DNA from: Candidatus Marinacidobacterales bacterium | Lineage (GTDB): Bacteria; Acidobacteriota; Vicinamibacteria; Marinacidobacterales; DATDRI01 | DNA: 64,000 nucleotides | Direction of reading: 5' to 3' | NCBI GenBank assembly: GCA_965226495.1 | Contig: OZ245365.1 | Location: 1,120,001 to 1,184,000 of the forward strand | Shown: one piece after another, positions 28-16,083 of the stretch | How the letters are laid out: each line of letters begins with the position of its first letter | Numbering within the stretch: position 1 is the first letter of the stretch | Made by a program: the position numbers and the translations under genes | Notes under the pieces: generated by a model | What the model saw: the letters and a program-made list of their open reading frames with translations, nothing else | What the model was told of the DNA's origin: nothing | Databases searched by the model: none

Positions 28-183
28 AGTGGACGGTAATAATGAAATCGATACTGGACTTCATCGCCGCTATCCACGCGCCCCCCTCACCCGCCCGCCG
101 AAGGCGGGCGACCTCTCCCCCGGAGTCGGGGGAGAGGTAATAGAGGTGGTACCAACTTCGTTGGCACGGCCTATTAGCGGCGG
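28..183. repeat. ~155-bp palindromic intergenic repeat (family A), copy 1; REP/MITE-like
   Basis: Its reverse complement aligns nearly end to end with 22612-22767. Contains a CCCCTCACCC...CCTCTCCCCC/GGGGGAGAGG stem and GAA/TTC-loop hairpins (cgcc-GAA-ggcg; ccaac-TTC-gttgg). Confidence 0.9.
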
Positions 184-782
184 TTTCGATAGAGCTTCTC
201 GTCCACGGCGCTGGTCATCTTGTCCACGTCGAGATTCCCCAAGAATTCACTAATACGCTCGGCCTCGCGTCGCGGATTCGCCACGACGTCCTTGTAGTTC
301 ACTTCCAGCAGCTCGAAACAAGGACGATGTTTCATCAGGTAGTTCACTTTCCAGAGATGATTCTTGTAGACCTCTAACATCTCCTCGTCCGAGGTTTCGG
401 AAGCCTCAGCCCGATTCTTCAGCATTTTCGTTTGGGAGGCCAGAACCTCGTCCAGGTTACGGCGCATGAACACCACCTTGTAGTTGTTCGTCTCCGGGAG
501 ATCTTTTAACAAGAAAGAGATGATCTTGATCGTCTTTCCCCGGAACTCCTTGAGGTAGGACTTGTCCGGCTCTTTCTCCAGCTCCTTGACCCGTTCGTAC
601 TCGTAATACCCTTTGGGGTTGTCCTCGCCGGCCTTTCGGATTCCGTCGGTGGCGATGCTGAGCCCGGCGGCCTCCAGCATCTGCATGGTCATGGACGTCC
701 CGGAGCGGGGGAGGCCCGAGACGACAATCAGCGGCTCACCGAACCGGATTCTTCTATAAGTCCTGACTAAAGTGGATGTCAT
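174..782 (-). CDS. Sulfotransferase family protein (P-loop, PAPS-binding)
   Basis: 5'-PSB loop VVSGLPRSGTS, NPKGYYE, and a 3'-PB-like FMRRNLDEVLASQ; YKDVVANP...ISEFLG. Confidence 0.85.
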   Translation of the reverse strand: MTSTLVRTYRRIRFGEPLIVVSGLPRSGTSMTMQMLEAAGLSIATDGIRKAGEDNPKGYYEYERVKELEKEPDKSYLKEFRGKTIKIISFLLKDLPETNNYKVVFMRRNLDEVLASQTKMLKNRAEASETSDEEMLEVYKNHLWKVNYLMKHRPCFELLEVNYKDVVANPRREAERISEFLGNLDVDKMTSAVDEKLYRNRR

Positions 783-983
783 CCGTGGGCTCCCGACTCC
801 TCCCGGGTTTGGGGGCCGGCGTCAAAACCTAGTAAGATAACGCTCTAGAGCTTGAAATGCCAGCCGCTTCTCAATAAACTACGTGATTCTGGCCCGTTGC
901 CGCGGCGCAGACCAGCCAACCGCTTTCCCCGCATGCGGAAGAGCGGCCCAACTTGCGCCTTCTTGAAAGGAAGACATCCGTTG

Positions 984-3131
984 ATGCGATCTAGTTCGAT
1001 GGGGAAGAGGGTTTCGAGGGCCGCCCCAGTGGTGATTTTCCTGGCGGCCATTCTTGGCTCGGCGGAGCCGGCCTTCGCCTACATCGGCCCGGGCGCTGGC
1101 TTCGCGCTCCTATCCTCTTTCCTTGTTCTCTTTACCACCATTATCCTCGCGATTTTTTCCCTGCTCATTCTTCCTTTCCGTGCGCTCTTCCGGCTCATCT
1201 TGCGCAAGACGCGGCCGAAGCCGTGGATCAAACGTATGATCGTTGTGGGATTCGACGGGCAAGATCCTAAGATCACCGAGCGGCTCTTGAAGAAGGGAAA
1301 GCTTCCGAACTTCAAGCGCCTGGCCGAGATGGGAAGTTATAGCCGCCTCCGTACCACCTTTCCTTCGATCTCGCCGGTGGCCTGGTCTTCCTTCAGTACC
1401 GGCACCAATCCGGCGCGCCACAACATCTATGATTTTCTTGACCGTGATCTCCGGACGTATTTGCCGGTACTTTCTTCGACACACATCGGCGGGCTCGAGA
1501 AGTTCCTGAAGATCGGACGTTATCGGGTTCCCCTGCGCAAGCCGGAAGTCCGGCTGCTCCGCAAGTCCAAACCCTTCTGGTCGATCCTGGGCGAGTACAA
1601 CATCTGGAGCTCGATCATTCGGGTTCCGATTACCTTTCCCCCCGATCACTTTTACGGAGCGCAACTCAGTGCGATGTGTGTGCCGGACCTCTTGGGCACG
1701 CAAGGAACGTTTCAACTTTTCACGACTCGGCCCGCCACCGAAAAATTCAAGGAAGGTGGCATTCGGATATCTCTCACGCCAAACGGGGACCGATTCGAGA
1801 CCAAGTTCGAGGGGCCCGAGAATCTGTTCAGGGAAGACAACGCGAAGCTCCAGGTTCCGTTTACGATTGCTCTGGATCGAGCCGCAAATCGGGTGCGGGT
1901 TTCGATTGGCAGTGACGAGGTGGAGCTTCAGAAGGGGCATTTGAGCGACTGGGTCACGCTGACCTTCAAGGCCGCTCCGGGGATCAAGGTCTCGGGCATT
2001 TGCCGCATGATGGTGACCGAGATGGAGGAGTATTTTTCGCTCTACGTGACTCCCATCAACATCGATCCCGAAAAACCCGCCATGCCGATTTCCCACCCAT
2101 CGTACTACTCGACTTATCTTGCCAAGAAGATCGGTCCCTACTCAACGCTTGGGCTCGCGGAGGACACCTGGGCTCTCAATGAAGGCGTGACCGATGATGG
2201 CACGTTCCTCCAGCAGGCTTATGACATCGATGGTGAGCGCCAGGAGATGTTTTTCGCTGCGATGGATCGGCTTCGTCGTGGGAGCCTGGTCTGCGTCTTC
2301 GACGCGACGGATCGTATCCAGCACATGTTCTGGCACTATACCGAGGACGGACATCCCGCCACCCAAAATGGAAAAGCGGATCTAGTGGGCAAGTACCGCG
2401 ACACAATCGATGAGATCTATATCCATAACGACAAGCTGGTGGGCAAGGTGCTCGATCAACTCGAGGACGGAGACGTGCTCTTCGTGATCTCGGACCACGG
2501 CTTCAGTTCTTTCCGCCGAGGCGTGAACCTGAATGCCTGGCTACAGGCCAACGGCTATTTGACACTCAAAGACGGTGCCGACGGGTCAGCGGAGTGGCTG
2601 CGTGACGTCGATTGGTCGAAAACGAAAGCATACTGCCTCGGTCTCACTGGAATGTTTCTCAATGTGAAGAACCGAGAGGGACAGGGGATCGTCGAGCAAG
2701 GAGCGGAGGCGGAGGTGTTGAAGGCGGAGCTCATCTCCAAGCTCAACGGACTGAAGGACGACGAAAAGGGTGCGGTGGGAATCAATGAAGTCTTCGATAC
2801 CGCCAACGTATACGGCGGTCCTTATATCGGAAATGCCCCGGACCTGATCATCGGTTACAACGGCGGCTACCGAATTTCCTGGGACTGCGCCACCGGCATG
2901 GTCTCCGGACCTGTTTTCGAGGACAACACAAAAGCGTGGAGCGGCGATCACTGCATCGATCCACGGTTGGTCCCCGGCGTGCTGTTTTGCAATCGCGAGA
3001 TCGATTCCGAAGATCCGGCCCTCATCGATATCGCGCCGAGTGCGCTCCGGATGTTCGGTCTCGAGCCACCGAAACATATGGATGGCAAATCCTTGTTTAC
3101 CAAGGAAACGTTTCAAGGCGCGGGGAGCTGA
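984..3131 (+). CDS. Alkaline phosphatase superfamily (type I phosphodiesterase/NPP-like) protein with signal peptide, AYIGPGAG motif and TM anchor
   Basis: VVGFDGQD, TTFPSISPVAWSSFSTG (Ser nucleophile position), DRIQHMFW, VISDHGF, WSGDH. ATG 984 is preceded by GAAAGGAAG. Confidence 0.85.
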   Translation: MRSSSMGKRVSRAAPVVIFLAAILGSAEPAFAYIGPGAGFALLSSFLVLFTTIILAIFSLLILPFRALFRLILRKTRPKPWIKRMIVVGFDGQDPKITERLLKKGKLPNFKRLAEMGSYSRLRTTFPSISPVAWSSFSTGTNPARHNIYDFLDRDLRTYLPVLSSTHIGGLEKFLKIGRYRVPLRKPEVRLLRKSKPFWSILGEYNIWSSIIRVPITFPPDHFYGAQLSAMCVPDLLGTQGTFQLFTTRPATEKFKEGGIRISLTPNGDRFETKFEGPENLFREDNAKLQVPFTIALDRAANRVRVSIGSDEVELQKGHLSDWVTLTFKAAPGIKVSGICRMMVTEMEEYFSLYVTPINIDPEKPAMPISHPSYYSTYLAKKIGPYSTLGLAEDTWALNEGVTDDGTFLQQAYDIDGERQEMFFAAMDRLRRGSLVCVFDATDRIQHMFWHYTEDGHPATQNGKADLVGKYRDTIDEIYIHNDKLVGKVLDQLEDGDVLFVISDHGFSSFRRGVNLNAWLQANGYLTLKDGADGSAEWLRDVDWSKTKAYCLGLTGMFLNVKNREGQGIVEQGAEAEVLKAELISKLNGLKDDEKGAVGINEVFDTANVYGGPYIGNAPDLIIGYNGGYRISWDCATGMVSGPVFEDNTKAWSGDHCIDPRLVPGVLFCNREIDSEDPALIDIAPSALRMFGLEPPKHMDGKSLFTKETFQGAGS

Positions 3132-3133
3132 CG

Positions 3134-5122
3134 ATGGGCCCAACGCGAGCCATCGGCCTGGCTTTGGTGCTCGGTGTAAGCCTGGTAGGAGTCTCCTGCG
3201 GGAGCGACAAGACCAGTGAGCCGACCGGACCGCGGGTCATCATTCTGGGGTTCGACGGCATGGACCATGGGCTCGCCGCCAAGTTCATGTCGGAGGGAAA
3301 GCTCCCGAACCTCTCGCGCGTAGCCGAGCAGGGACATTTCTCTCCGCTAGCGACTTCCGTGCCACCGCAGAGCCCAGTGGCGTGGTCCAACTTCATCACC
3401 GGCATGGACTCGGGTGGCCACGGTATCTTCGATTTCGTACATCGGGATCCGGAAACGATGTTCCCCTTCCTATCGTCGGCCGAGACCCATGCCGGAGGGA
3501 CAACGATCAAGGTCGGGAAATGGCAGATCCCGCTTTCTGGTGGCTCCGTCGAGCTGCTGCGTCGAGGGAAGGCCTTCTGGGAGGTGCTCGAGGAAAACGG
3601 CGTGGAGACGACGATCATCCGGATGCCGGCGAACTACCCCCCGTCGGGGACCGCCACTCGTGAGCTGAGCGGCATGGGAACCGTCGACATCATCGGCTCG
3701 TACGGGACGTTTTCGTTCTATACCTCGGAGCTCTTCGCCTTCGCCGGTGAAGACATTTCCGGTGGGAAGGTCTACGAAGTCGATGTTTTCGACAGCGTCG
3801 TGGAGGCCGAACTCTACGGGCCCGACAATCCTTTTCTCGTGGAGCCGAAAAAAGTCACCTCGCCGTTTACCGCGTATCTCGATCCCGAAGAGTCGCTTGC
3901 CAAGATCGTCGTCGACACCGAAGAAGTCGTTCTCGCGGTAGGAGAGTGGAGCGACTGGGTGCCCATAGAATTCGATCTCATTCCGACTCAGAGTTTGCCC
4001 GGAATGGCCCGTTTCTATCTCAAACAGATAGAGCCCGACTTCGAGCTCTACGTCACTCCGATCAATCTCGATCCCTATGAGCCGGCGCAGCCCATCTCGA
4101 CACCCGCTTCTTATGCCGCGGAGGTGGCCGAAGCATCTGGTCGCTTCTACACCCAAGGAATGCCGGAGGACACCGCCGCCCTCATGGAGGACGTGTTCAC
4201 GCCCGAAGAGTTTCTAACTCAGTCCAAGATAGCGGGAGAAGAAAACGTCGAGCAGTACAAATGGGTGCTCGACCAATTCACGAACGGCCTCCTTTTCTAC
4301 TACTTCGGCAACGTGGATCAAATCAGTCACATGATGTGGCGGGGTCGAGACCCGGGACACCCGGCCTACGATGCGGATCAAGACGCCGGTTTTGCCGGCC
4401 TCATCGACGAGCTCTATCAGGGATTGGACCGAATTGTGGGCTATACGCTCGACAGAATGAACGAAGACGACCTGCTAGTCGTGATGTCGGACCATGGATT
4501 CACTTCGTGGCGGCGGTCCTTTCACTTGAACGCCTGGCTTCACCAGAATGGATTCCTCGCCGTACGGGATCCGAATATGGAAGACGACCCCGGGATTTTC
4601 GCCAACGTGGATTGGACGGGGACGCAGGCCTACGCGGTCGGCATCAATTCGTTGTATATCAATCTCCGCGGGCGTGAAAAGTGGGGAATCGTGAACCCTG
4701 TCGAGAGAGAAGCGATTATGGACGCGATCGCCGAGAAGCTTCTGGCGACCATTGATCCCGAGACCGGTGAGCAAGCCGTGACCAAAGTCTACAAACGAGA
4801 AGAGTTCTACAAGGACCGCGGCGAGCTCGAGATCGGTCCCGATTTAGTCATCGGTTACACCAAAGGAACCCGAGGCTCCAACGAGTCGGCATTGGGCGCG
4901 GTCGGCAAAGAGGTGTTTAGCGACAACACCAGCATTTGGAGCGGCGACCACGCTATGGACCACGAAGCGGTTCCCGGCGTTCTATTCGCGAGTCGTCCTC
5001 TAAAGAGAGATGCCACTCGATTACAAGACCTGGCAGCCGCAGTCCTAGCGGAATTCGGCATCGAGGGAGAGTTTCCCTCGCGAGTTGGCGAAGACGTGGA
5101 GGCCGGTAAGGGAGGAAGTTGA
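3134..5122 (+). CDS. Alkaline phosphatase superfamily (NPP-like) probable lipoprotein; paralog of the upstream gene
   Basis: N-terminus MGPTRAIGLALVLGVSLVGVS-C is lipobox-like; ILGFDGMD, PPQSPVAWSNFITG, DQISHMMW, MSDHGF, WSGDH. Confidence 0.85.
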   Translation: MGPTRAIGLALVLGVSLVGVSCGSDKTSEPTGPRVIILGFDGMDHGLAAKFMSEGKLPNLSRVAEQGHFSPLATSVPPQSPVAWSNFITGMDSGGHGIFDFVHRDPETMFPFLSSAETHAGGTTIKVGKWQIPLSGGSVELLRRGKAFWEVLEENGVETTIIRMPANYPPSGTATRELSGMGTVDIIGSYGTFSFYTSELFAFAGEDISGGKVYEVDVFDSVVEAELYGPDNPFLVEPKKVTSPFTAYLDPEESLAKIVVDTEEVVLAVGEWSDWVPIEFDLIPTQSLPGMARFYLKQIEPDFELYVTPINLDPYEPAQPISTPASYAAEVAEASGRFYTQGMPEDTAALMEDVFTPEEFLTQSKIAGEENVEQYKWVLDQFTNGLLFYYFGNVDQISHMMWRGRDPGHPAYDADQDAGFAGLIDELYQGLDRIVGYTLDRMNEDDLLVVMSDHGFTSWRRSFHLNAWLHQNGFLAVRDPNMEDDPGIFANVDWTGTQAYAVGINSLYINLRGREKWGIVNPVEREAIMDAIAEKLLATIDPETGEQAVTKVYKREEFYKDRGELEIGPDLVIGYTKGTRGSNESALGAVGKEVFSDNTSIWSGDHAMDHEAVPGVLFASRPLKRDATRLQDLAAAVLAEFGIEGEFPSRVGEDVEAGKGGS

Positions 5123-5316
5123 TGTTTGGGTCGACGAAAGTGAAGTTGGATACAGATTTGGTGGCCAAGGTCAAGAAGTATTCGGACATCGCCGGATACT
5201 CCTCGCCCGAGGAGTTCATCACCCATGCTCTCGAAAAAGAGCTGGCCAAGCTCGAGGACGCTGGCTCCGAAGAGGAGATCCGTAAAAGACTTCAGGGGTT
5301 GGGTTACATCTCCTAG
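5122..5316 (+). CDS. Small ribbon-helix-helix-like protein with C-terminal EEIRKRLQGLGY motif
   Basis: TGATG stop/start overlap with the upstream gene and a GGAGGA RBS. Strand-helix-helix pattern KVKLDTDLVAKVKK..GYSSPEEFITHALEKEL. Confidence 0.8.
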   Translation: MFGSTKVKLDTDLVAKVKKYSDIAGYSSPEEFITHALEKELAKLEDAGSEEEIRKRLQGLGYIS

Positions 5317-5334: not shown

Positions 5335-6183
5335 ATGTCGTACATCAACGCTATATTGAGGCCTGTCTTCGAGCTTCTTCTTTCGCCCTTTAGCGGGCTT
5401 CCTGCCATCGTGGGGCTGGCGGTGGTGTCGCTGATCACGGCCATCGGGATGCTCCTAGTCTTCAAGAAGACTTCGAACCAGGATGCCATTGCGGCTGTGA
5501 AGCGGCGCATTCACGCCAACCTTTTCGAGATCCGCCTCTTTAACGACGATCTACGAGCCATACTGCGTTCGCAAACCGAGATCCTCCGTCACAACCTGAC
5601 CTATCTTCGCCTGTCCGCGGTTCCCATGTTGTGGACCTTGCCGCCATTGATCTTGATCATCGCTCAACTTCAATTTCACTACGGCTACGCTGGACTCGAT
5701 CCCACTAATCCGGTTCTCCTCAAAGTCGAGCTCCAAGACAGCGGGAACAACGCTTCGTGGGAAGAAGCGCCCCGGCCGGAGCTCACCCTGGCCGCTCCCT
5801 CCGGTATACGGATCGAGACACCTGGTCTGTGGATTCCTTCGCTTCGGGAAATGGATTGGCGAATAGTCGGTGAAGGGAGCGGGGACTACGTAGTCGAAGT
5901 GAAACTCGATGGTCAGTCTCACTCGAAAACGGTGCGAGTCTCGAACGACGTCGTGCTTCGATCGCCCTCGCGTTTGGAAAAGGGCTTCTTGAACCAACTC
6001 CTTTTTCCGGCCGAGCCCCCCCTACTGGCGGACAGTCCCATCAAATCGATCACCGTGAACTACCCGGAGGCGGCGGTGAATACTTTCGTTTTCGGATGGT
6101 CACTGCACTGGATGATCATCTACTTCGTGCTAGCCATCGCCTTCGCATTCGCCCTCAGGAACACGTTCAAAGTCCAGATGTAA
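5335..6183 (+). CDS. Membrane protein resembling DUF106/EMC3/TMCO1 (Oxa1 superfamily) with an inserted soluble beta domain
   Basis: Amphipathic N-helix, TM1 (IVGLAVVSLITAIGMLLVF), charged coiled-coil hairpin, TM2 (PMLWTLPPLILIIAQL), ~135-aa loop, TM3 (WMIIYFVLAIAFAFALR). Confidence 0.6.
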   Translation: MSYINAILRPVFELLLSPFSGLPAIVGLAVVSLITAIGMLLVFKKTSNQDAIAAVKRRIHANLFEIRLFNDDLRAILRSQTEILRHNLTYLRLSAVPMLWTLPPLILIIAQLQFHYGYAGLDPTNPVLLKVELQDSGNNASWEEAPRPELTLAAPSGIRIETPGLWIPSLREMDWRIVGEGSGDYVVEVKLDGQSHSKTVRVSNDVVLRSPSRLEKGFLNQLLFPAEPPLLADSPIKSITVNYPEAAVNTFVFGWSLHWMIIYFVLAIAFAFALRNTFKVQM

Positions 6184-6258
6184 CGGGTTTGCGGGTACGG
6201 GTCTTCGGGCGCATAATGTCTCTAAATCAGTAAAACGTGCGCTAGGAGGAGTTTGGCG

Positions 6259-7002
6259 ATGAGCCAGAAACTAAATGGGCTTGTCCTCGCTGCTTTTTTG
6301 ACGACCGGCCTCATCACCGGTGCGGTCGCGGTGGCCAAGGATAAGCCTCCCGTGGCGACAGGCGAGTTTCAGTTCCTGCTGGTGGGAAAACGTATCGGCG
6401 AGGAGCGGTTTCGGGTCTTCAAGGATAAGAAGGACTATCGCATCGAGTCCACCACGACCTTCTATTGGCCGAAGCCGAGCGCTCAACATTACGAGTGGAA
6501 GCTGGATCGATCTCTTCAGCCGGACAAGCTGGACCACGATCTAAGAGAAGGTGGCAAGGTGATCACCGTCGAGCTGAGGAAAAAAGGCAAGAACTGGCGG
6601 AGCGAGGTCAAAGGAAAAAACGTCAAGAAGGTCAAGGAAGACATGGGCCTGAGGCAGTCTGCGGAGATCGATTTCGGATCACCTTTGTTCCAGTGGATTA
6701 CTTTTCGACACCTCAAGCTTGCAGAAGGGGAAAAGAAAGACGTTGAAGTGATCGTGCTCGAAGCGCCGAAGCCGAAGGTGGCACGCATCGAGCGAACCTA
6801 CACCCGGCTACCGGACGAAGGGGTTCAAGCCGATGTGCAAGGCGAGGTTGTGGCCTCCATTTATGATGTGACCCAATCGGAATCCAGTTACCGGCTTTGG
6901 TTGGATCCAAGCGGCTTCCCTATCCGCACCGAGCGAGAAACACCCGACGGTCTGCTCGAGATTCGACTGGTCCGTTTCGATAAGCACCCGCGGGCCTGGT
7001 GA
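6259..7002 (+). CDS. Exported hypothetical beta-rich protein (DUF3108/DUF6134-like)
   Basis: Signal peptide ending AVA-VA; GKRIGEERF and LWLDPSGFPIR patterns; AGGAGGA RBS. Confidence 0.55.
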   Translation: MSQKLNGLVLAAFLTTGLITGAVAVAKDKPPVATGEFQFLLVGKRIGEERFRVFKDKKDYRIESTTTFYWPKPSAQHYEWKLDRSLQPDKLDHDLREGGKVITVELRKKGKNWRSEVKGKNVKKVKEDMGLRQSAEIDFGSPLFQWITFRHLKLAEGEKKDVEVIVLEAPKPKVARIERTYTRLPDEGVQADVQGEVVASIYDVTQSESSYRLWLDPSGFPIRTERETPDGLLEIRLVRFDKHPRAW

Positions 7003-7021: not shown

Positions 7022-8086
7022 TCACCCGGTCGAGGCCAGTTGGCAGCCTGAGTAGACTGGCCCTGGCTCGCGTGCACGGCTGTCGGAGCGCCGGAATCGC
7101 CCCATCACTTCCTTTCCGTACGTGCGTTCAGCCAGATATTGGTTGTGCGCTGGACACATCATTTGAACGTTGTCAGGGCTGTGGTCGCCGCCCAGGGCAA
7201 ATGCCTCGTCGTGGTGAAACTGCAGCGCATTGCGACTCCGGCACCGTCTGCCGCGTCCGTCCACAAAGGTACAACGGTTCCCGTCGCGCTCGCTGACCGT
7301 GCGCCGCACTGCGGCCGGGATGTAACGTGACGACGGCGATGTGTCGGTCTCTTCGACGCTCTTCCTAGGGGCTGTCGTCTTGCCGAAGCGCTTCGCCTCG
7401 AGTCTTTCGAGCTTCTCGCTCACGGCTTCTTCGATGATCGCAGCCAGGTCGCCGTCTGGAACCGATGAACGCATGAGCGCCTGGAGCCGCTCTAACTTGG
7501 CGTGGAACTCGGCGTTGGCCGTGAACTGGACCTTGTAACGGGCAGGCGCCAGGGGCTCGACCAAAGCGGGCTTGGTCTTCGCAGGAGCGGGTAACTCGAT
7601 CGCAACTTGGTCCGGACCGAGTTGCGAGGCTGCTTTCTTCGGTCGCTGGGGTAGCTTTCGCATCACGGTTGGAACATCCGGCTTCGGGGTGATTTCGATC
7701 ACCAACTCCTCGATCTCTCGTTTGGATCTATGCGCCGCACGAGCCAGAAGCGTTTCTCGATTGGCTTCGGTCAGGTGCAGAGCGAGCTTGGCGATGCCGC
7801 TTAAGTGAAGCCGGCCGTCACCCAGCATCGCGAGCAGCATCGGATGCTTCCGAGACGCACGACCCACTGCGATGCGCAAATAGGCCTCGTGCTCCGACAA
7901 GTGCAACTCCTCCGTGCAGTAGGCAAACATAGAGGAGAATGCCCCTCTCGCATAGAGCCGCCGCTCGTCTACCTCGGCAATATGTGCGACAAGCTCTGAC
8001 TCGATGCGTCGTGAGTTCTGCACCAGCCCTGTTAAGCGGCGGAGTAGCTCATCATCCGAAATTGATTTTAGTAACTTGCTAGACAT
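7022..8086 (-). CDS. DUF222-like domain plus C-terminal HNH endonuclease
   Basis: N-terminal LVAHIAEVDERRLY...FSSMFAYC..L.LSE.EAY.RI; C-terminal RDGNRCTF..RC....LQFHHDEAFALGG.HSPDNVQMMCPAHN. Confidence 0.85.
   Translation of the reverse strand: MSSKLLKSISDDELLRRLTGLVQNSRRIESELVAHIAEVDERRLYARGAFSSMFAYCTEELHLSEHEAYLRIAVGRASRKHPMLLAMLGDGRLHLSGIAKLALHLTEANRETLLARAAHRSKREIEELVIEITPKPDVPTVMRKLPQRPKKAASQLGPDQVAIELPAPAKTKPALVEPLAPARYKVQFTANAEFHAKLERLQALMRSSVPDGDLAAIIEEAVSEKLERLEAKRFGKTTAPRKSVEETDTSPSSRYIPAAVRRTVSERDGNRCTFVDGRGRRCRSRNALQFHHDEAFALGGDHSPDNVQMMCPAHNQYLAERTYGKEVMGRFRRSDSRAREPGPVYSGCQLASTG
7600..7627. repeat. 28-bp near-perfect palindrome inside the HNH gene; related copy at 8373-8392
   Basis: TCGCAACTTGGTCC-GGACCGAGTTGCGA has one mismatch between arms. 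7605-7624 matches 8373-8392 at 18/20. Confidence 0.8.
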
Positions 8087-12778: not shown

Positions 12779-13817
12779 AGTTGGGTTTTGCCGAACAATC
12801 TTTCCTTCAACGGTTTCTTACTTGGTTTCTTTCTCGTTGGCGAAGTAATCCTCGCCGGGTGCGGATCGCAAGATGCTCACATCGCATATGACCTTGTCGA
12901 GCATCTCCCAAGCGCCGTTGTCATTAGAGAGAGCCCTCTTCTGGACTTCGGCTCAGGCTCGAGTCGGGCTCTCCTTTACGCGGGCTGGTCCCGGGATGAG
13001 GTCGCCGCCGACGGAACGACGTTTGTTTGGGGGGTAGGGGAGGGGTCGTCTCTAAACTTTTTTCTGGCCGAGCCACGCGACCTTGCTCTGACTTTCCGTT
13101 GTTGGCCCTTTTCGTATCCGGGCGCACCTTCCCAGACACTGACTTTGTGGATCAATGGCCACGATGTCGGCGGTCTGGAGCTCGGAGCGACGGCCTTGGA
13201 GTATAGGATCGAAGTCCACGCGGCAGACCTCATTTCTGGCACCAACCAGCTCGAGATTGCGTACGGCCATCACCGCTCTCCGAGCGAAGTGCTTCCTGGG
13301 GCCACTGACGATCGAGGTCTTGCAGTTGGTTGGGATTGGCTTCGCATTGGAGAAGCGGCTCCCGCGCGCGCGCCGTTCGCCAGAGGCGATGGGCGAATCG
13401 CATCGGTGATGCTTCCAAACCATCTGCGACTCGAGTACCAATTGGATGTCCCCGCCGAAAGCTCGTTGGTTATCGAAAGCGTGGGGTTTTGGGGCTCCAA
13501 CGAGGAAGCGGAAACGACCAACCTTCAGGTCACCGTTCAAACAATGAACGCGCGGACGGAGGAGCACTTCGAAATTCCCGGGCATGTGGACCTTCCGATA
13601 TCGGTAGCATCGTCGCAGCGCCTGGTCTTGTCCTTTCAGACCCGCGGAGAGCCGGGAGCACCCGGAGCCGATGCCGGCATTCGTCTCCTGCGGCCGACCA
13701 TCCGTTCTGCGTCGTGGCCGGAGTCGAGTGAAACCCCTCTCCGCCCGTCCGGGCGGCCGAACATTCTGCTTTATGTAATCGATACCCTGCGTGCGGACCA
13801 TTTGGGTTGTTACGGGT

Positions 13818-14895
13818 CGCGAATTCATAAAGTAAGTGCAACACAGCTCCCGGATGAGGTGACCTGGAATGTGCCACGATTCCTCAAACAACCAAGAATG
13901 GGGACTCGCTAATGACTTATTACCAGATCACCTCGGAAGAACGCTACACCATCGCGGCGCTGCGACGGGAGGGATTTTGCTCGGCCGAGATCGCGCGGCG
14001 CCTGGGGCGCCACCGGAGCACCATCTCGAGAGAGGTCAGGAGGAACAGCTCACCTAGTGATGGATGCTACCGGCCGAGCAAGGCCATCGAGAGAACGAAC
14101 GGACGACGCTCGCGGTCTCGCCGGAACCAGTACTTCACAAAGGCCGACTTTGCCCTGGTGGAGAAGAAGCTTAAGGCCGACTGGAGCCCAGAGCAGATCT
14201 CCGGCCACCTGCGCCTTCACGGCGAGCTCTCGATCAGCCACGAGACGATCTACACCCACGTTTGGCGGGACAAGGAGGCCGGAGGACATCTATACCGCCA
14301 CCTTCGATGCTCGCCCAAACTTAGACGCAAGCGCCACAACAGCTACGACAGCCGAGGCCGCCTGGCCGGGAAGCGTCACATCTCCGAGCGGCCGTCTTGT
14401 ATCGACAAGCGCCGTGCCGTTGGCCACTGGGAGATTGACACCGTGGTAGGAAAAGACGCGCCGGACTGCGTCACCACGCTCGTGGAACGAAAGACGGGCT
14501 ATGCGCTGATCGGCAAACTGTCCGACCGCAGCATGTTCGGCACTAGCCAGCGAACGAAGATGTTGCTCCGGCGGGTGCCGGATCAGGTCAAGACCATCAC
14601 CGCGGACAATGGCACGGAGTTCCACGACTACGAATCCGTCGAGGAAGCGACCGGCGTCAAGTTCTACTTTGCAACTCCCTATCACTCATGGGAGAGAGGC
14701 AGCAACGAGAACTTCAATGGATTGCTACGACAATACCTGCCGAAGCGCACCAGCCAAGCAGCGCTCACGCAACGCCACTGCGATGGTATCGCAAAGAAGC
14801 TCAACACACGGCCCCGCAAGAGGCTCGGTTACCGCACACCGGAGGAACGTTTCCATGGGAACTAACGAATGGTGCGCTTCAAACTTGAAGTCACA
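13818..14895 (+). mobile_element. IS30 family insertion sequence (1078 bp), 3-bp target duplication GGT
   Basis: Imperfect 27-bp terminal IRs at 13818-13844 (CGCGAATTCATAAAGTAAGTGCAACAC) and 14869-14895 (ATGGTGCGCTTCAAACTTGAAGTCACA). GGT flanks at 13815-13817 and 14896-14898. Confidence 0.92.
13912..14865 (+). CDS. IS30 family DDE transposase
   Basis: HTH IARRLGRHRSTISREVRRN, WSPEQISG, GHWEIDTV, TITADNGTEF, PYHSWERGSNENFNGLLRQYLPK, LNTRPRKRLGYRTP. Confidence 0.97.
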   Translation: MTYYQITSEERYTIAALRREGFCSAEIARRLGRHRSTISREVRRNSSPSDGCYRPSKAIERTNGRRSRSRRNQYFTKADFALVEKKLKADWSPEQISGHLRLHGELSISHETIYTHVWRDKEAGGHLYRHLRCSPKLRRKRHNSYDSRGRLAGKRHISERPSCIDKRRAVGHWEIDTVVGKDAPDCVTTLVERKTGYALIGKLSDRSMFGTSQRTKMLLRRVPDQVKTITADNGTEFHDYESVEEATGVKFYFATPYHSWERGSNENFNGLLRQYLPKRTSQAALTQRHCDGIAKKLNTRPRKRLGYRTPEERFHGN

Positions 14896-16083
14896 GGTCT
14901 TCGAGTCCGACGCCGCGGATCGATGCCTTCGCGGGGCAGGCGACGCTCTTCGAGACGGCGTATGCGCAATCGTCTTGGACCAAGTCATCGGTGGCTTCGA
15001 TCATGTCGGGGCTTCTGCCGCGCGCGCACGCCGCCAACCGGCGCGAGGATGCCTTGCCTCCTGGAATCGACACGCTGGCTGAGCGGCTGGATCGATCGGG
15101 ATACGCCAGAGCCGGTTTCGTTACCAACCCGAACCTCGCGTCGGCCTTTGGTTTCGATCAAGGGTTCGAGACATACGAGCTTCTTGTCGAGGAAGACCCA
15201 CAGCGAGGCTACGTCCGTTCGGATGCACTTAACCGCCGCGCCATCGAATGGCTCGAGAACCGCAGCACGACCGAGCCATTCTTCCTCTATATGCATTCGA
15301 TGGATCCTCATGATCCCTATCTTTCTGGGGCTTCCCGAGCAGAGCCGGCGGACGGGATCGGCACGATGGCATTTATGACTGCTCTCGAGGATGGGCGAAT
15401 CGATTCTTCTGCAGAGATCCATACGAGGCTGATGGAACTGTATGATTCAGAGATCGCGTTCAACGATCAACACTTCGGCGAGCTGCTGGATTGGTTGAAG
15501 CGCGTCGGCCTGTACGAACCAACGCTTATTGTGCTCGTCTCCGACCACGGCGAAGAGTTCGACGACCACGGTTGGTGGCGTCATGGCAAGACGCTCTACC
15601 GGGAGCAGCTCGAGATCCCACTCATCGTGAAGTGGCCGGGAGGGCATGATGTAGGCGTTCGCCGTGAGGACGTTGCTCAGCACGTCGATTTGTTGCCGAC
15701 GTTGATGCGGCACATTGGCGGGGAGTCGACTAGCGATCTTCACGGACGAAGTCTTTGGAGCCGGCAGACCAGCCCCGCAGTGTTCAGCTACCTCAATCTG
15801 GATGGACGCGAGCTGGAAAGCGTCGTCTACCGAGACCAGAAGCTCATCCGGTATCTTTCCTTCGATCGGCCGCGGTCGCCCCTCCAGGTTTTCGATCTCG
15901 CCTCGGATGGAGCGGAGTCCCGAGACCTGGCGCCTGAGCGACCCCTTCCAGCATCCTTTCTGGCGAGGCTTCTCGCACATTCGAGAAGTTTGTCCGGGAC
16001 GCGAGTCCCGGTGCCGGCGACGATCGACGAGTCACTCGAGGAGAAACTTCGGGCGCTCGGCTATCTGCGGTAGTTCTGATGGG

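Follow-up and report, generated by a model that had tools for sequence, protein, structure and literature searches.

The window analysed here, a stretch of 64,000 nucleotides from a Candidatus Marinacidobacterales bacterium (contig OZ245365.1, positions 1,120,001 to 1,184,000 of the forward strand), encodes a 64-residue protein, RHH1, in which a ribbon-helix-helix (RHH) core is followed by a short C-terminal helix ending in an LGY motif, and whose gene lies directly behind those of two NPP-type enzymes of the alkaline phosphatase (AP) superfamily, AlkP1 and AlkP2. The most economical account of RHH1, to which we give about an even chance, is that of a small cytoplasmic RHH protein that would act as a dedicated docking subunit, an adaptor or regulatory cap, of the membrane-anchored AlkP1. 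This account is favored on the combined grounds of gene linkage, co-occurrence, conservation, complex prediction, AlkP1-specific contacts, the pairing of a paralog, RHH2, with a third enzyme, AlkP3, and the portability of the tail. The features of the two proteins in the window are the following:

5122..5316, + strand: RHH1, 64-residue RHH-tail protein (ATG at 5122, stop TAG at 5314-5316, coordinates including the stop; from the open reading frame and sequence, homologs and model)
5110..5115, + strand: Shine-Dalgarno GGGAGG, 6 nucleotides 5' of the RHH1 ATG (read from sequence)
5122..5256, + strand: RHH core, residues 1-45 (extended N-terminus 1-10, helix 11-24, G25-Y-S-S turn, helix 29-45; from the AlphaFold2 model, Foldseek and the NikR profile)
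5260..5313, + strand: acidic linker and LGY tail, residues 47-64 (helix 50-60, then GYIS; from hhalign against cis tails, invariant residues and the predicted interface)
984..3131, + strand: AlkP1, NPP-type enzyme (PF01663 at 4.4e-29; alignment of 61 orthologs; predicted docking partner)

Identity, Fold and Selection of RHH1

RHH1 starts with MFGSTKVKLD and ends with EEEIRKRLQGLGYIS, and its ATG overlaps the TGA stop of AlkP2 in the string TGATG (5120-5124). Its homologs comprise 2414 proteins of 35-112 residues at E<=0.01, the top 120 being 84-98% identical, and a search without word index returned 349 cluster representatives of the family at E<=1e-3. Y62 does not vary among the 46 diverse members compared, at least 90% of which also keep M1, G25, Y26, E31, F32, E38, G59, L60 and G61. 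Eight residues of the tail (I, K, L, G, L, G, Y and S) show no variation across 81 copies, one from the window and the others from 80 loci of other genomes, and each of them is encoded by two to six synonymous codons, a turnover that argues for constraint on the peptide and not on the DNA before the next gene. The C-terminus takes the form [QKR]GLGY[IML]S in 80 of 80 copies; homologs lacking the LGY tail, which an earlier sequence-only reading of this DNA had named as evidence against its own proposal, were thus not found among them. The identity of RHH1 to the window copy also exceeds that of AlkP1 in all 78 of the 78 loci compared. RHH1 is a genuine gene, and strong purifying selection acts on its product.

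The AlphaFold2 model of RHH1 has a predicted local distance difference test score (pLDDT) of 86.5 overall and of 93-96 across residues 11-40. Among the matches listed by Foldseek, RHH proteins predominate (NikR, RHH antitoxins, omega, Arc, CopG, PutA), the best placed being NikR 2hza (probability 0.99, root-mean-square deviation (rmsd) of 1.7 over 48 positions); the best matches superpose with an rmsd of 1-2 Å over 41-49 columns, and their E-values are weak (0.17 or more), as is to be expected with 45 residues. The family profile, searched against the PDB, reaches the RHH domain of NikR at E 0.029, and the inter-helix G-x-S/T turn of the superfamily is present as G25-Y26-S27-S28. As for curated families, the sole Pfam match was PSK_trans_fac (E 0.022; 16.1 bits against a cut-off of 28.3), and no NCBIfam model matched. 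As modelled, RHH1 is a protein of the ribbon-helix-helix (CopG/Arc/MetJ) fold class, and the open reading frame with an RHH-like fold and LGY tail that the sequence-only reading had described is confirmed by model, structural matches and profile alike.

Fusion forms were also considered and rejected. Against 2414 relatives of normal length there are 20 longer matches, all of them single-member clusters, and nine junctions checked (six from the longer-relative search, three from the search of cluster representatives) look frameshifted or read-through, with the start Met of the RHH protein retained. Since longer relatives are few and their junctions frameshift-like, RHH1 seems to stand essentially always alone.

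Conservation of the Cassette

The gene order around RHH1 is that of a conserved cassette, with a sulfotransferase on one side and AlkP1-(AlkP2)-RHH1-Oxa1/EMC3-like membrane protein on the other. An AlkP gene is found directly upstream of RHH1 in 78 of the 80 related loci, and a membrane gene directly downstream in the same number; the two exceptions in each case begin or end, respectively, at a contig edge, so that homologs away from AlkP genes, which the sequence-only reading had also counted as adverse, did not appear. Median gaps are about 19 nucleotides on the upstream and 18 on the downstream side. The divergent sulfotransferase accompanies 60 of the 80 loci, AlkP1 and AlkP2 occur together in 53, and AlkP1 occurs alone in 15. 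Most of the loci come from metagenome-assembled genomes of Acidobacteriota, with a few records labelled Gammaproteobacteria, Gemmatimonadota, Myxococcota or Methylomirabilota. Within the phylum, the RHH1 family is present in 110 of 301 sampled genomes, and 83 of the 85 genomes with an AlkP1 match (E<=1e-170) also have the RHH protein at E<=1e-11, the AlkP gene lying at a contig end in the two exceptions; these tallies include the unpublished genome G049 (one of the 83) and, for AlkP, G024 and G152, whose omission changes nothing material.

None of the 73 readable C-termini encoded by AlkP genes upstream of RHH1 ends in LGY, nor do the two enzymes of the window, as had been noticed from their sequences, and none of the nine best AlkP1/2 homologs in RHH-less genomes (34-39% identity) carries the tail in cis. 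The AlkP1/2 family would therefore be natively tail-less, and the tail of RHH1 replaces nothing that was lost. The sequence-only reading had proposed that RHH1 supplies in trans a tail that other enzymes carry in cis, and had expected the cis tail and RHH1 to be anti-correlated across genomes; the anti-correlation is absent, and with it falls the notion of a replacement, while supply in trans gains from the docking prediction described below.

Predicted Docking on AlkP1

RHH1 has no signal sequence (read from sequence). The N-terminus of AlkP1 consists of a signal-like segment ending in AFA, the string YIGPGAG, one hydrophobic, presumably transmembrane (TM), span and a run of Arg and Lys, a layout from which the catalytic domain is predicted to be cytoplasmic. 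AlkP2, which had been considered as another recipient of the tail, is a doubtful one: it begins with a lipoprotein-type signal (LVGVSC, with FTGC at the corresponding place in the homolog P0271) and is predicted to be an exported lipoprotein, and a cytoplasmic RHH1 is therefore unlikely to meet the mature enzyme. Given the signal-free RHH1 and these topologies, three candidates for a cytoplasmic partner would remain: AlkP1, the sulfotransferase and, through its cytoplasmic hairpin, the membrane protein.

Residues 80-715 of AlkP1 (counted from the ATG at 984; 61-row alignment) were submitted to complex prediction with two copies of RHH1 (46 rows), a check that the sequence-only reading had suggested. 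The ipSAE was 0.63 (0.63, 0.61 and 0.67 in the separate runs), whereas the best of three controls scored 0.00; in the calibration of the tool, 116 of 157 solved complexes and 2 of 215 mismatched pairs reach the mark. The runs had at least 86% of contacts in common, with a partner pLDDT of at least 74. To our knowledge, no complex of an RHH protein with an AP-type enzyme has been solved, which makes recall of a known structure unlikely. The prediction supports docking of RHH1 onto the predicted cytoplasmic domain of AlkP1.

On the side of RHH1, the predicted interface involves residues 22, 24-28, 31-32, 35, 42, 47-48, 50, 53 and 55-62, that is, the near-invariant columns of the turn and tail, so that it is made up of the invariant GYSS-EF loop together with the LGY helix. 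On the side of AlkP1, it includes residues 139, 145, 194-196, 612-614, 652 and 696-698, of which 145 adjoins the near-invariant H146-N147, and W652 precedes D655-H656 by three residues; both pairs may be active-site-type motifs of the AP superfamily. Several contact residues (S195, R190, P613-Y614, I168 and Q240) do not vary among the 61 AlkP1 orthologs and are different in 53 AlkP2 and nine RHH-less homologs, and AlkP1-specific invariants of this sort occupy 6 of the 32 positions of the interface, compared with 44 of the remaining 604 (one-sided Fisher p 0.032).

The LGY Tail as a Shared Module

The genome from which the window comes (6.34 Mb in one contig) has 23 open frames ending in [RKQE]L..LGY.{0,3}. 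Leaving aside RHH1, the sulfatase piece of the window and a 67-residue frame at genome positions 4049340-4049543, 19 of the 20 tailed frames examined belong to the AlkP superfamily, 16 matching PF00884 (sulfatase-type) and three PF01663 (NPP-type). Seen from the other side, the tail ends 25 of the 61 open frames of this genome with a PF00884 or PF01663 match, and in about five others it stops a few residues short of the end. When the RHH1 family profile was aligned by hhalign with a profile of the 20 cis tails, the last 17 columns matched with a probability of 93.6% and an E-value of 2.1e-7, and RHH1 shows the arrangement that defines the module, an acidic stretch followed by I/V-x-x-R/K-L-x-x-LGY-I/V/L. 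The tail of RHH1 is, as far as profile comparison can tell, the same module as the cis tails of the enzymes, the resemblance being beyond chance, and the kinship with sulfatase/NPP-like enzymes perceived in the sequence-only reading is in this respect upheld.

In four long sulfatase-type frames of the genome the helix is internal, lying just past the catalytic domain and ahead of a further C-terminal region:

Genome G000:C1, 1019733-1022399: sulfatase-type frame with internal LGY helix
Genome G000:C1, 2258077-2260242: sulfatase-type frame with internal LGY helix
Genome G000:C1, 3053171-3055453: sulfatase-type frame with internal LGY helix
Genome G000:C1, 5565860-5568100: sulfatase-type frame with internal LGY helix

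These internal helices are followed by a linker with DPKDKI and then by a C-terminal region that is TPR-like by eye, which indicates that a free C-terminus is not required. Many of the tailed enzymes start with lipoprotein-type signals, again as read by eye.

The tail is not restricted to enzymes of this superfamily. Among the best 120 homologs (P0286-P0405) of one tailed APS kinase (query L115 1880-2497), 119 end in the tail, in the form RL(K/R)DLGY(I or LG), about 25 residues past the ends of solved APS kinases. No solved APS kinase includes it, these structures ending near residue 180 of the 206-residue tailed kinase. The LGY tail, judged by its occurrence, is portable and not specific to sulfatase/NPP enzymes. 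A search of the PDB with the tail profile gave no matching chain (best E 0.082, none with LGY), PDB sulfatases gave no alignment across the tail, and literature searches found, among the papers listed, no description of the tail or of the cassette.

Two side observations concern LGY-like endings. In the APS-kinase homologs, a similar helix (e.g., TLE.LGYIP) just ahead of the tail corresponds to the native C-terminal helix of the kinase. An 89-residue open frame at genome positions 734593-734862 (G000:C1) has no Pfam match and ends in RERLEALGYLDN; located in a cluster of tailed sulfatases, it overlaps another frame whose match to the sulfatase N-terminus is short, and it is probably a broken sulfatase gene.

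RHH2 and Sulfate Activation

Some genomes possess a second, divergent copy, RHH2, which ends in AIRKRLKN(L/M)GY(L/F). It adjoins AlkP3, a third NPP paralog, soluble and tail-less, in 8 of 8 loci examined, and a tailed APS kinase is also found beside it in five of the eight. These clusters, all from other Acidobacteriota genomes, and the repeats associated with two of them are:

L110, 6445-9888: RHH2, tailed APS kinase and AlkP3
L112, 11846-13928: RHH2, tailed APS kinase and AlkP3
L115, 49-2500: RHH2, tailed APS kinase and AlkP3
L116, 3379-5648: RHH2, tailed APS kinase and AlkP3
L117, 5384-8627: RHH2, tailed APS kinase and AlkP3
L110, 6445-6472, + strand: AT(T/A)RGG array, candidate RHH operator
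L112, 13901-13928, - strand: AT(T/A)RGG array, candidate RHH operator

In L110, the locus scanned for ATP sulfurylase, the order is a CysQ-like gene, then RHH2, ATP sulfurylase, tailed APS kinase, AlkP3, AlkP1, AlkP2, RHH1 and the membrane protein. RHH2 is the first gene of its sulfate-activation (Sat-CysC-AlkP3) operon, and RHH1 keeps its separate mid-operon position even in genomes with RHH2. Directly upstream of RHH2, L110 and L112 have three to four AT(T/A)RGG hexamers with 11-bp spacing, an array found in none of the other 115 of the 117 loci; L111, L113 and L117 have other repeats or palindromes in the same place. These operator-like repeats suggest that DNA binding is probably retained in the family. 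The genome of the window has RHH1 only and no RHH2, and the APS kinase encoded there, fused to Sat (Sat-CysC), has no extra tail.

With regard to sulfation, the authors of PMC11980604 considered two sulfatase-like members of the AP superfamily in Halobacterium salinarum, VNG1056C and VNG1057C, as candidates for the sulfotransferase of its N-glycans, and one of the section headings states that deletion of either affects N-glycan sulfation. The paper offers, by analogy, a precedent for AP-fold proteins acting in sulfation.

Other Genes and Sites in the Window

The remaining features of the window that bear on the cassette are:

174..782, - strand: divergent sulfotransferase (PF13469 at 5e-14, PF00685 at 8e-11)
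852..880, + strand: promoter-like site TTGAAA-17-TAAACT ahead of AlkP1 (consensus scan; block kept in the three closest relatives)
3134..5122, + strand: AlkP2, NPP-type paralog without tail (PF01663 at 4.3e-29; lipoprotein-like signal)
5335..6183, + strand: membrane protein of 282 residues (as modelled, three TM helices, putative cytoplasmic helical hairpin, Ig-like periplasmic domain; model pLDDT 93.9)
15981..16073, + strand: cis LGY tail of the interrupted sulfatase

The model of the membrane protein has helices at 24-46, 49-68, 73-116 and 259-274, with the Ig-like domain between the last two TM helices. No Pfam family is significant for it; PF01956 (EMC3/TMCO1) matches 11 of 44 orthologs weakly, below cut-off (best E 0.0028). 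The top VIA match is 7tut_8 of the multipass-translocon entry 7TUT (Z 8.7, rmsd 3.9, 136 aligned), only 0.5 Z above unrelated helical rows, a chain that we take to be TMCO1; Foldseek matched the Ig-like domain alone. Taken together, the model-based comparisons are suggestive of an Oxa1-type (Oxa1/EMC3/TMCO1-like) protein.

The sulfatase-like protein to which the same ending had been ascribed (12788-16073) does show it, the frame that stops at 16073 ending in LEEKLRALGYLR, but the gene is split into an N-terminal piece (12788-13912), a transposase open reading frame (13912-14865; Pfam HTH_38 at 1.2e-15, and rve, the integrase core, at 2.3e-7) and a C-terminal piece (14991-16073; PF00884 at 4.2e-31). 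The interruption may be an IS30-type insertion; no convincing terminal inverted repeats were found for it.

A weak direct repeat upstream of AlkP1, GCCAGCCGCTT / GCCAACCGCTT, its copies 56 nucleotides apart, was considered as an operator and set aside, since it is not conserved in relatives. Downstream of the membrane gene lie a 249-residue open frame (6253-7002, + strand; PF06475, 'putative glycolipid-binding', at 1.3e-10) and a 354-residue open frame (7022-8086, - strand) in which a Cys/His motif resembling HNH can be made out by eye close to the C-terminus; in the searched flank of the 80 related loci, the glycolipid-binding-like match recurs in L008 only and the HNH-like one in L003 only.

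Proposed Docking Subunit and Alternative Explanations

The arrangement envisaged is one in which the core of RHH1 presumably dimerises, like other RHH proteins, and one subunit would place the invariant G-Y-S-S..E-F turn and the C-terminal LGY helix on a conserved surface of AlkP1 that includes residue 145 and W652, a contact that may regulate or complete the enzyme. The LGY helix would be a portable docking module, common to many sulfatase/NPP enzymes and to a large group of APS kinases; being portable, it could mean that RHH1 draws on the interaction code by which proteins of sulfate activation are tied to these enzymes, and the same helix would also bring APS kinase, and possibly other proteins, to them.

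Several points weigh against this account. The docking is a model, obtained with alignments of our own and two partner copies, conditions that differ from those of the tool's calibration, and AlkP1 was the sole partner put into the complex prediction. The enrichment of AlkP1-specific residues at the interface is modest and is lost among invariant positions alone (p 0.23). The RHH-less AlkP1/2 homologs have neither tail nor RHH protein, which implies that the AlkP fold does not require the LGY helix, and with cis tails found on exported lipoproteins and cytoplasmic proteins alike, a single common receptor is difficult to imagine. Finally, the RHH fold is, like the K-x-K strand and the GYSS turn, what an ordinary DNA-binding repressor would also show, and RHH2 looks like one.

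In the main rival explanation, RHH1 would be a DNA-binding repressor of the cassette, sequestered on AlkP1 through its tail and GYSS turn, and the state of the enzyme, or its occupancy by other tailed proteins, would feed back on transcription; this dual role is conceivable, and we consider it unlikely. The G-x-S-S turn of canonical RHH proteins contacts the DNA backbone, and RHH1 has this turn in addition to the fold and the strand; as the predicted interface uses the same turn, binding to DNA and to the enzyme could be mutually exclusive. The position of RHH2 at the head of Sat-CysC-AlkP3 operons, behind the arrays of L110 and L112, is likewise compatible with a switch. The cassette itself, however, offers no corresponding operator: k-mer and palindrome scans of the sulfotransferase-AlkP1 intergenic regions of 50 loci gave GC-rich words and a -10-like TATACT only, with no conserved repeat or palindrome. 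The core of RHH1 has a net charge of about -1 (counted from sequence), and its gene is mid-operon; where both paralogs occur, RHH2 holds the position of a regulator and RHH1 stays behind AlkP2 and ahead of the membrane gene, an arrangement that points to a separate role for RHH1.

An ordinary CopG-type autorepressor, in which the tail would aid higher-order oligomerisation on DNA and its likeness to the enzyme tails would be that of a generic helix, appears quite unlikely. It has on its side the top PDB matches of RHH1, NikR and RHH antitoxins, and the names given to its relatives, one source using 'metal-responsive CopG/Arc/MetJ family transcriptional regulator' and the ESM Atlas automatically naming clusters CopG, although none of the Pfam and NCBIfam models scores above its cut-off. 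A protein that outconserves the neighbouring enzymes across classes and phyla would be unusual for an operator-bound repressor; moreover, the tail matches the cis-tail profile and recurs on the APS kinases of the RHH2 clusters, and the prediction with AlkP1 passed with clean controls.

A partner of the tail other than AlkP1, be it the cytoplasmic hairpin of the Oxa1/EMC3-like membrane protein or other LGY tails in a homotypic bundle, seems improbable. The constancy and closeness of the membrane gene behind RHH1 would fit the former, and the two tailed proteins (RHH2 and CysC) co-encoded in RHH2 clusters the latter; yet L115-L117 pair RHH2 with an AlkP paralog and have no match to the membrane protein of the window, and no other clearly cytoplasmic tailed protein was identified in the window cassette or among the 23 tailed frames of the genome. 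Least credible of all is a carrier or substrate role, in which Y62 (or Y26) would be sulfated or phosphorylated by enzymes of the cassette and shuttle the group: the conservation of both tyrosines, the linked sulfotransferase and an interface beside putative active-site-type motifs would agree with it, but the same Tyr occurs on exported enzymes and on internal copies leading into further domains, and it is preceded by Gly, unlike the acidic context of tyrosine sulfation sites.

A broader reading, itself held to be distinctly doubtful, would join several of these elements. The LGY helix would serve an undescribed sulfation machine as its general docking code, with cytoplasmic NPP-type hubs (AlkP1, AlkP3) recruiting any tailed protein, including APS kinase for the supply of 3'-phosphoadenosine-5'-phosphosulfate (PAPS) and the RHH proteins; RHH-tail transcription factors would sense the occupancy of the hub, being withheld from their operators when docked at the active-site rim through the DNA-contacting turn, and expression would track the state of the membrane enzyme.

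Comparison with Known Systems

Among the closest parallels are the RHH type II antitoxins (ParD, CopA_SO, MazE9, AtaR), which are among the best fold matches of RHH1 and, like it, combine a small N-terminal RHH core with a flexible C-terminal extension, by which they grip a partner encoded next door. RHH1 differs in that its predicted partner is an enzyme of the alkaline phosphatase superfamily, its gene is mid-operon and its tail is common to enzymes; no toxin gene is adjacent, the Pfam scan of the neighbours giving PF01663 enzymes in addition to the membrane protein. NikR, the best match in both sequence and fold, resembles it down to the G-Y turn; unlike NikR, RHH1 lacks a C-terminal metal-binding tetramerisation domain and has only the linker and tail helix past residue 45. 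PutA joins an RHH domain to a membrane-associating enzyme, whereas RHH1 and its enzyme are separate polypeptides, with no catalytic domain in the 64 residues.

In the cysteine synthase complex, the C-terminal tail of CysE docks into CysK, and the likeness is that a protein of sulfur metabolism uses a short conserved peptide at its C-terminus to bind a second such protein, in or close to the active site, and thereby to regulate it; sequences and folds are unrelated, and the LGY peptide is found on several unrelated proteins, its binding being only predicted. Compared with the cis LGY end-helix of sulfatase/NPP enzymes and APS kinases, RHH1 has the same motif of 16-17 residues, with the acidic stretch and I/V-x-x-R/K-L-x-x-L-G-Y-I/V/L-x, and differs in carrying it on a 45-residue RHH scaffold, with Gly before LGY and Ser always as the last residue.

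Implications

If the docking of RHH1 on AlkP1 is true, a helix of 16 residues would be a transferable address label joining regulators, a PAPS-making kinase and dozens of proteins annotated as "sulfatase", and this label would point to a single class of phosphodiesterase-like enzymes, as yet uncharacterised, from bacteria of soils and sediments. It would represent a new mode of coupling between an RHH protein and an enzyme, would flag thousands of "CopG regulators" as probable enzyme subunits, and would give a direct handle on the role of these very abundant, mis-named enzymes.

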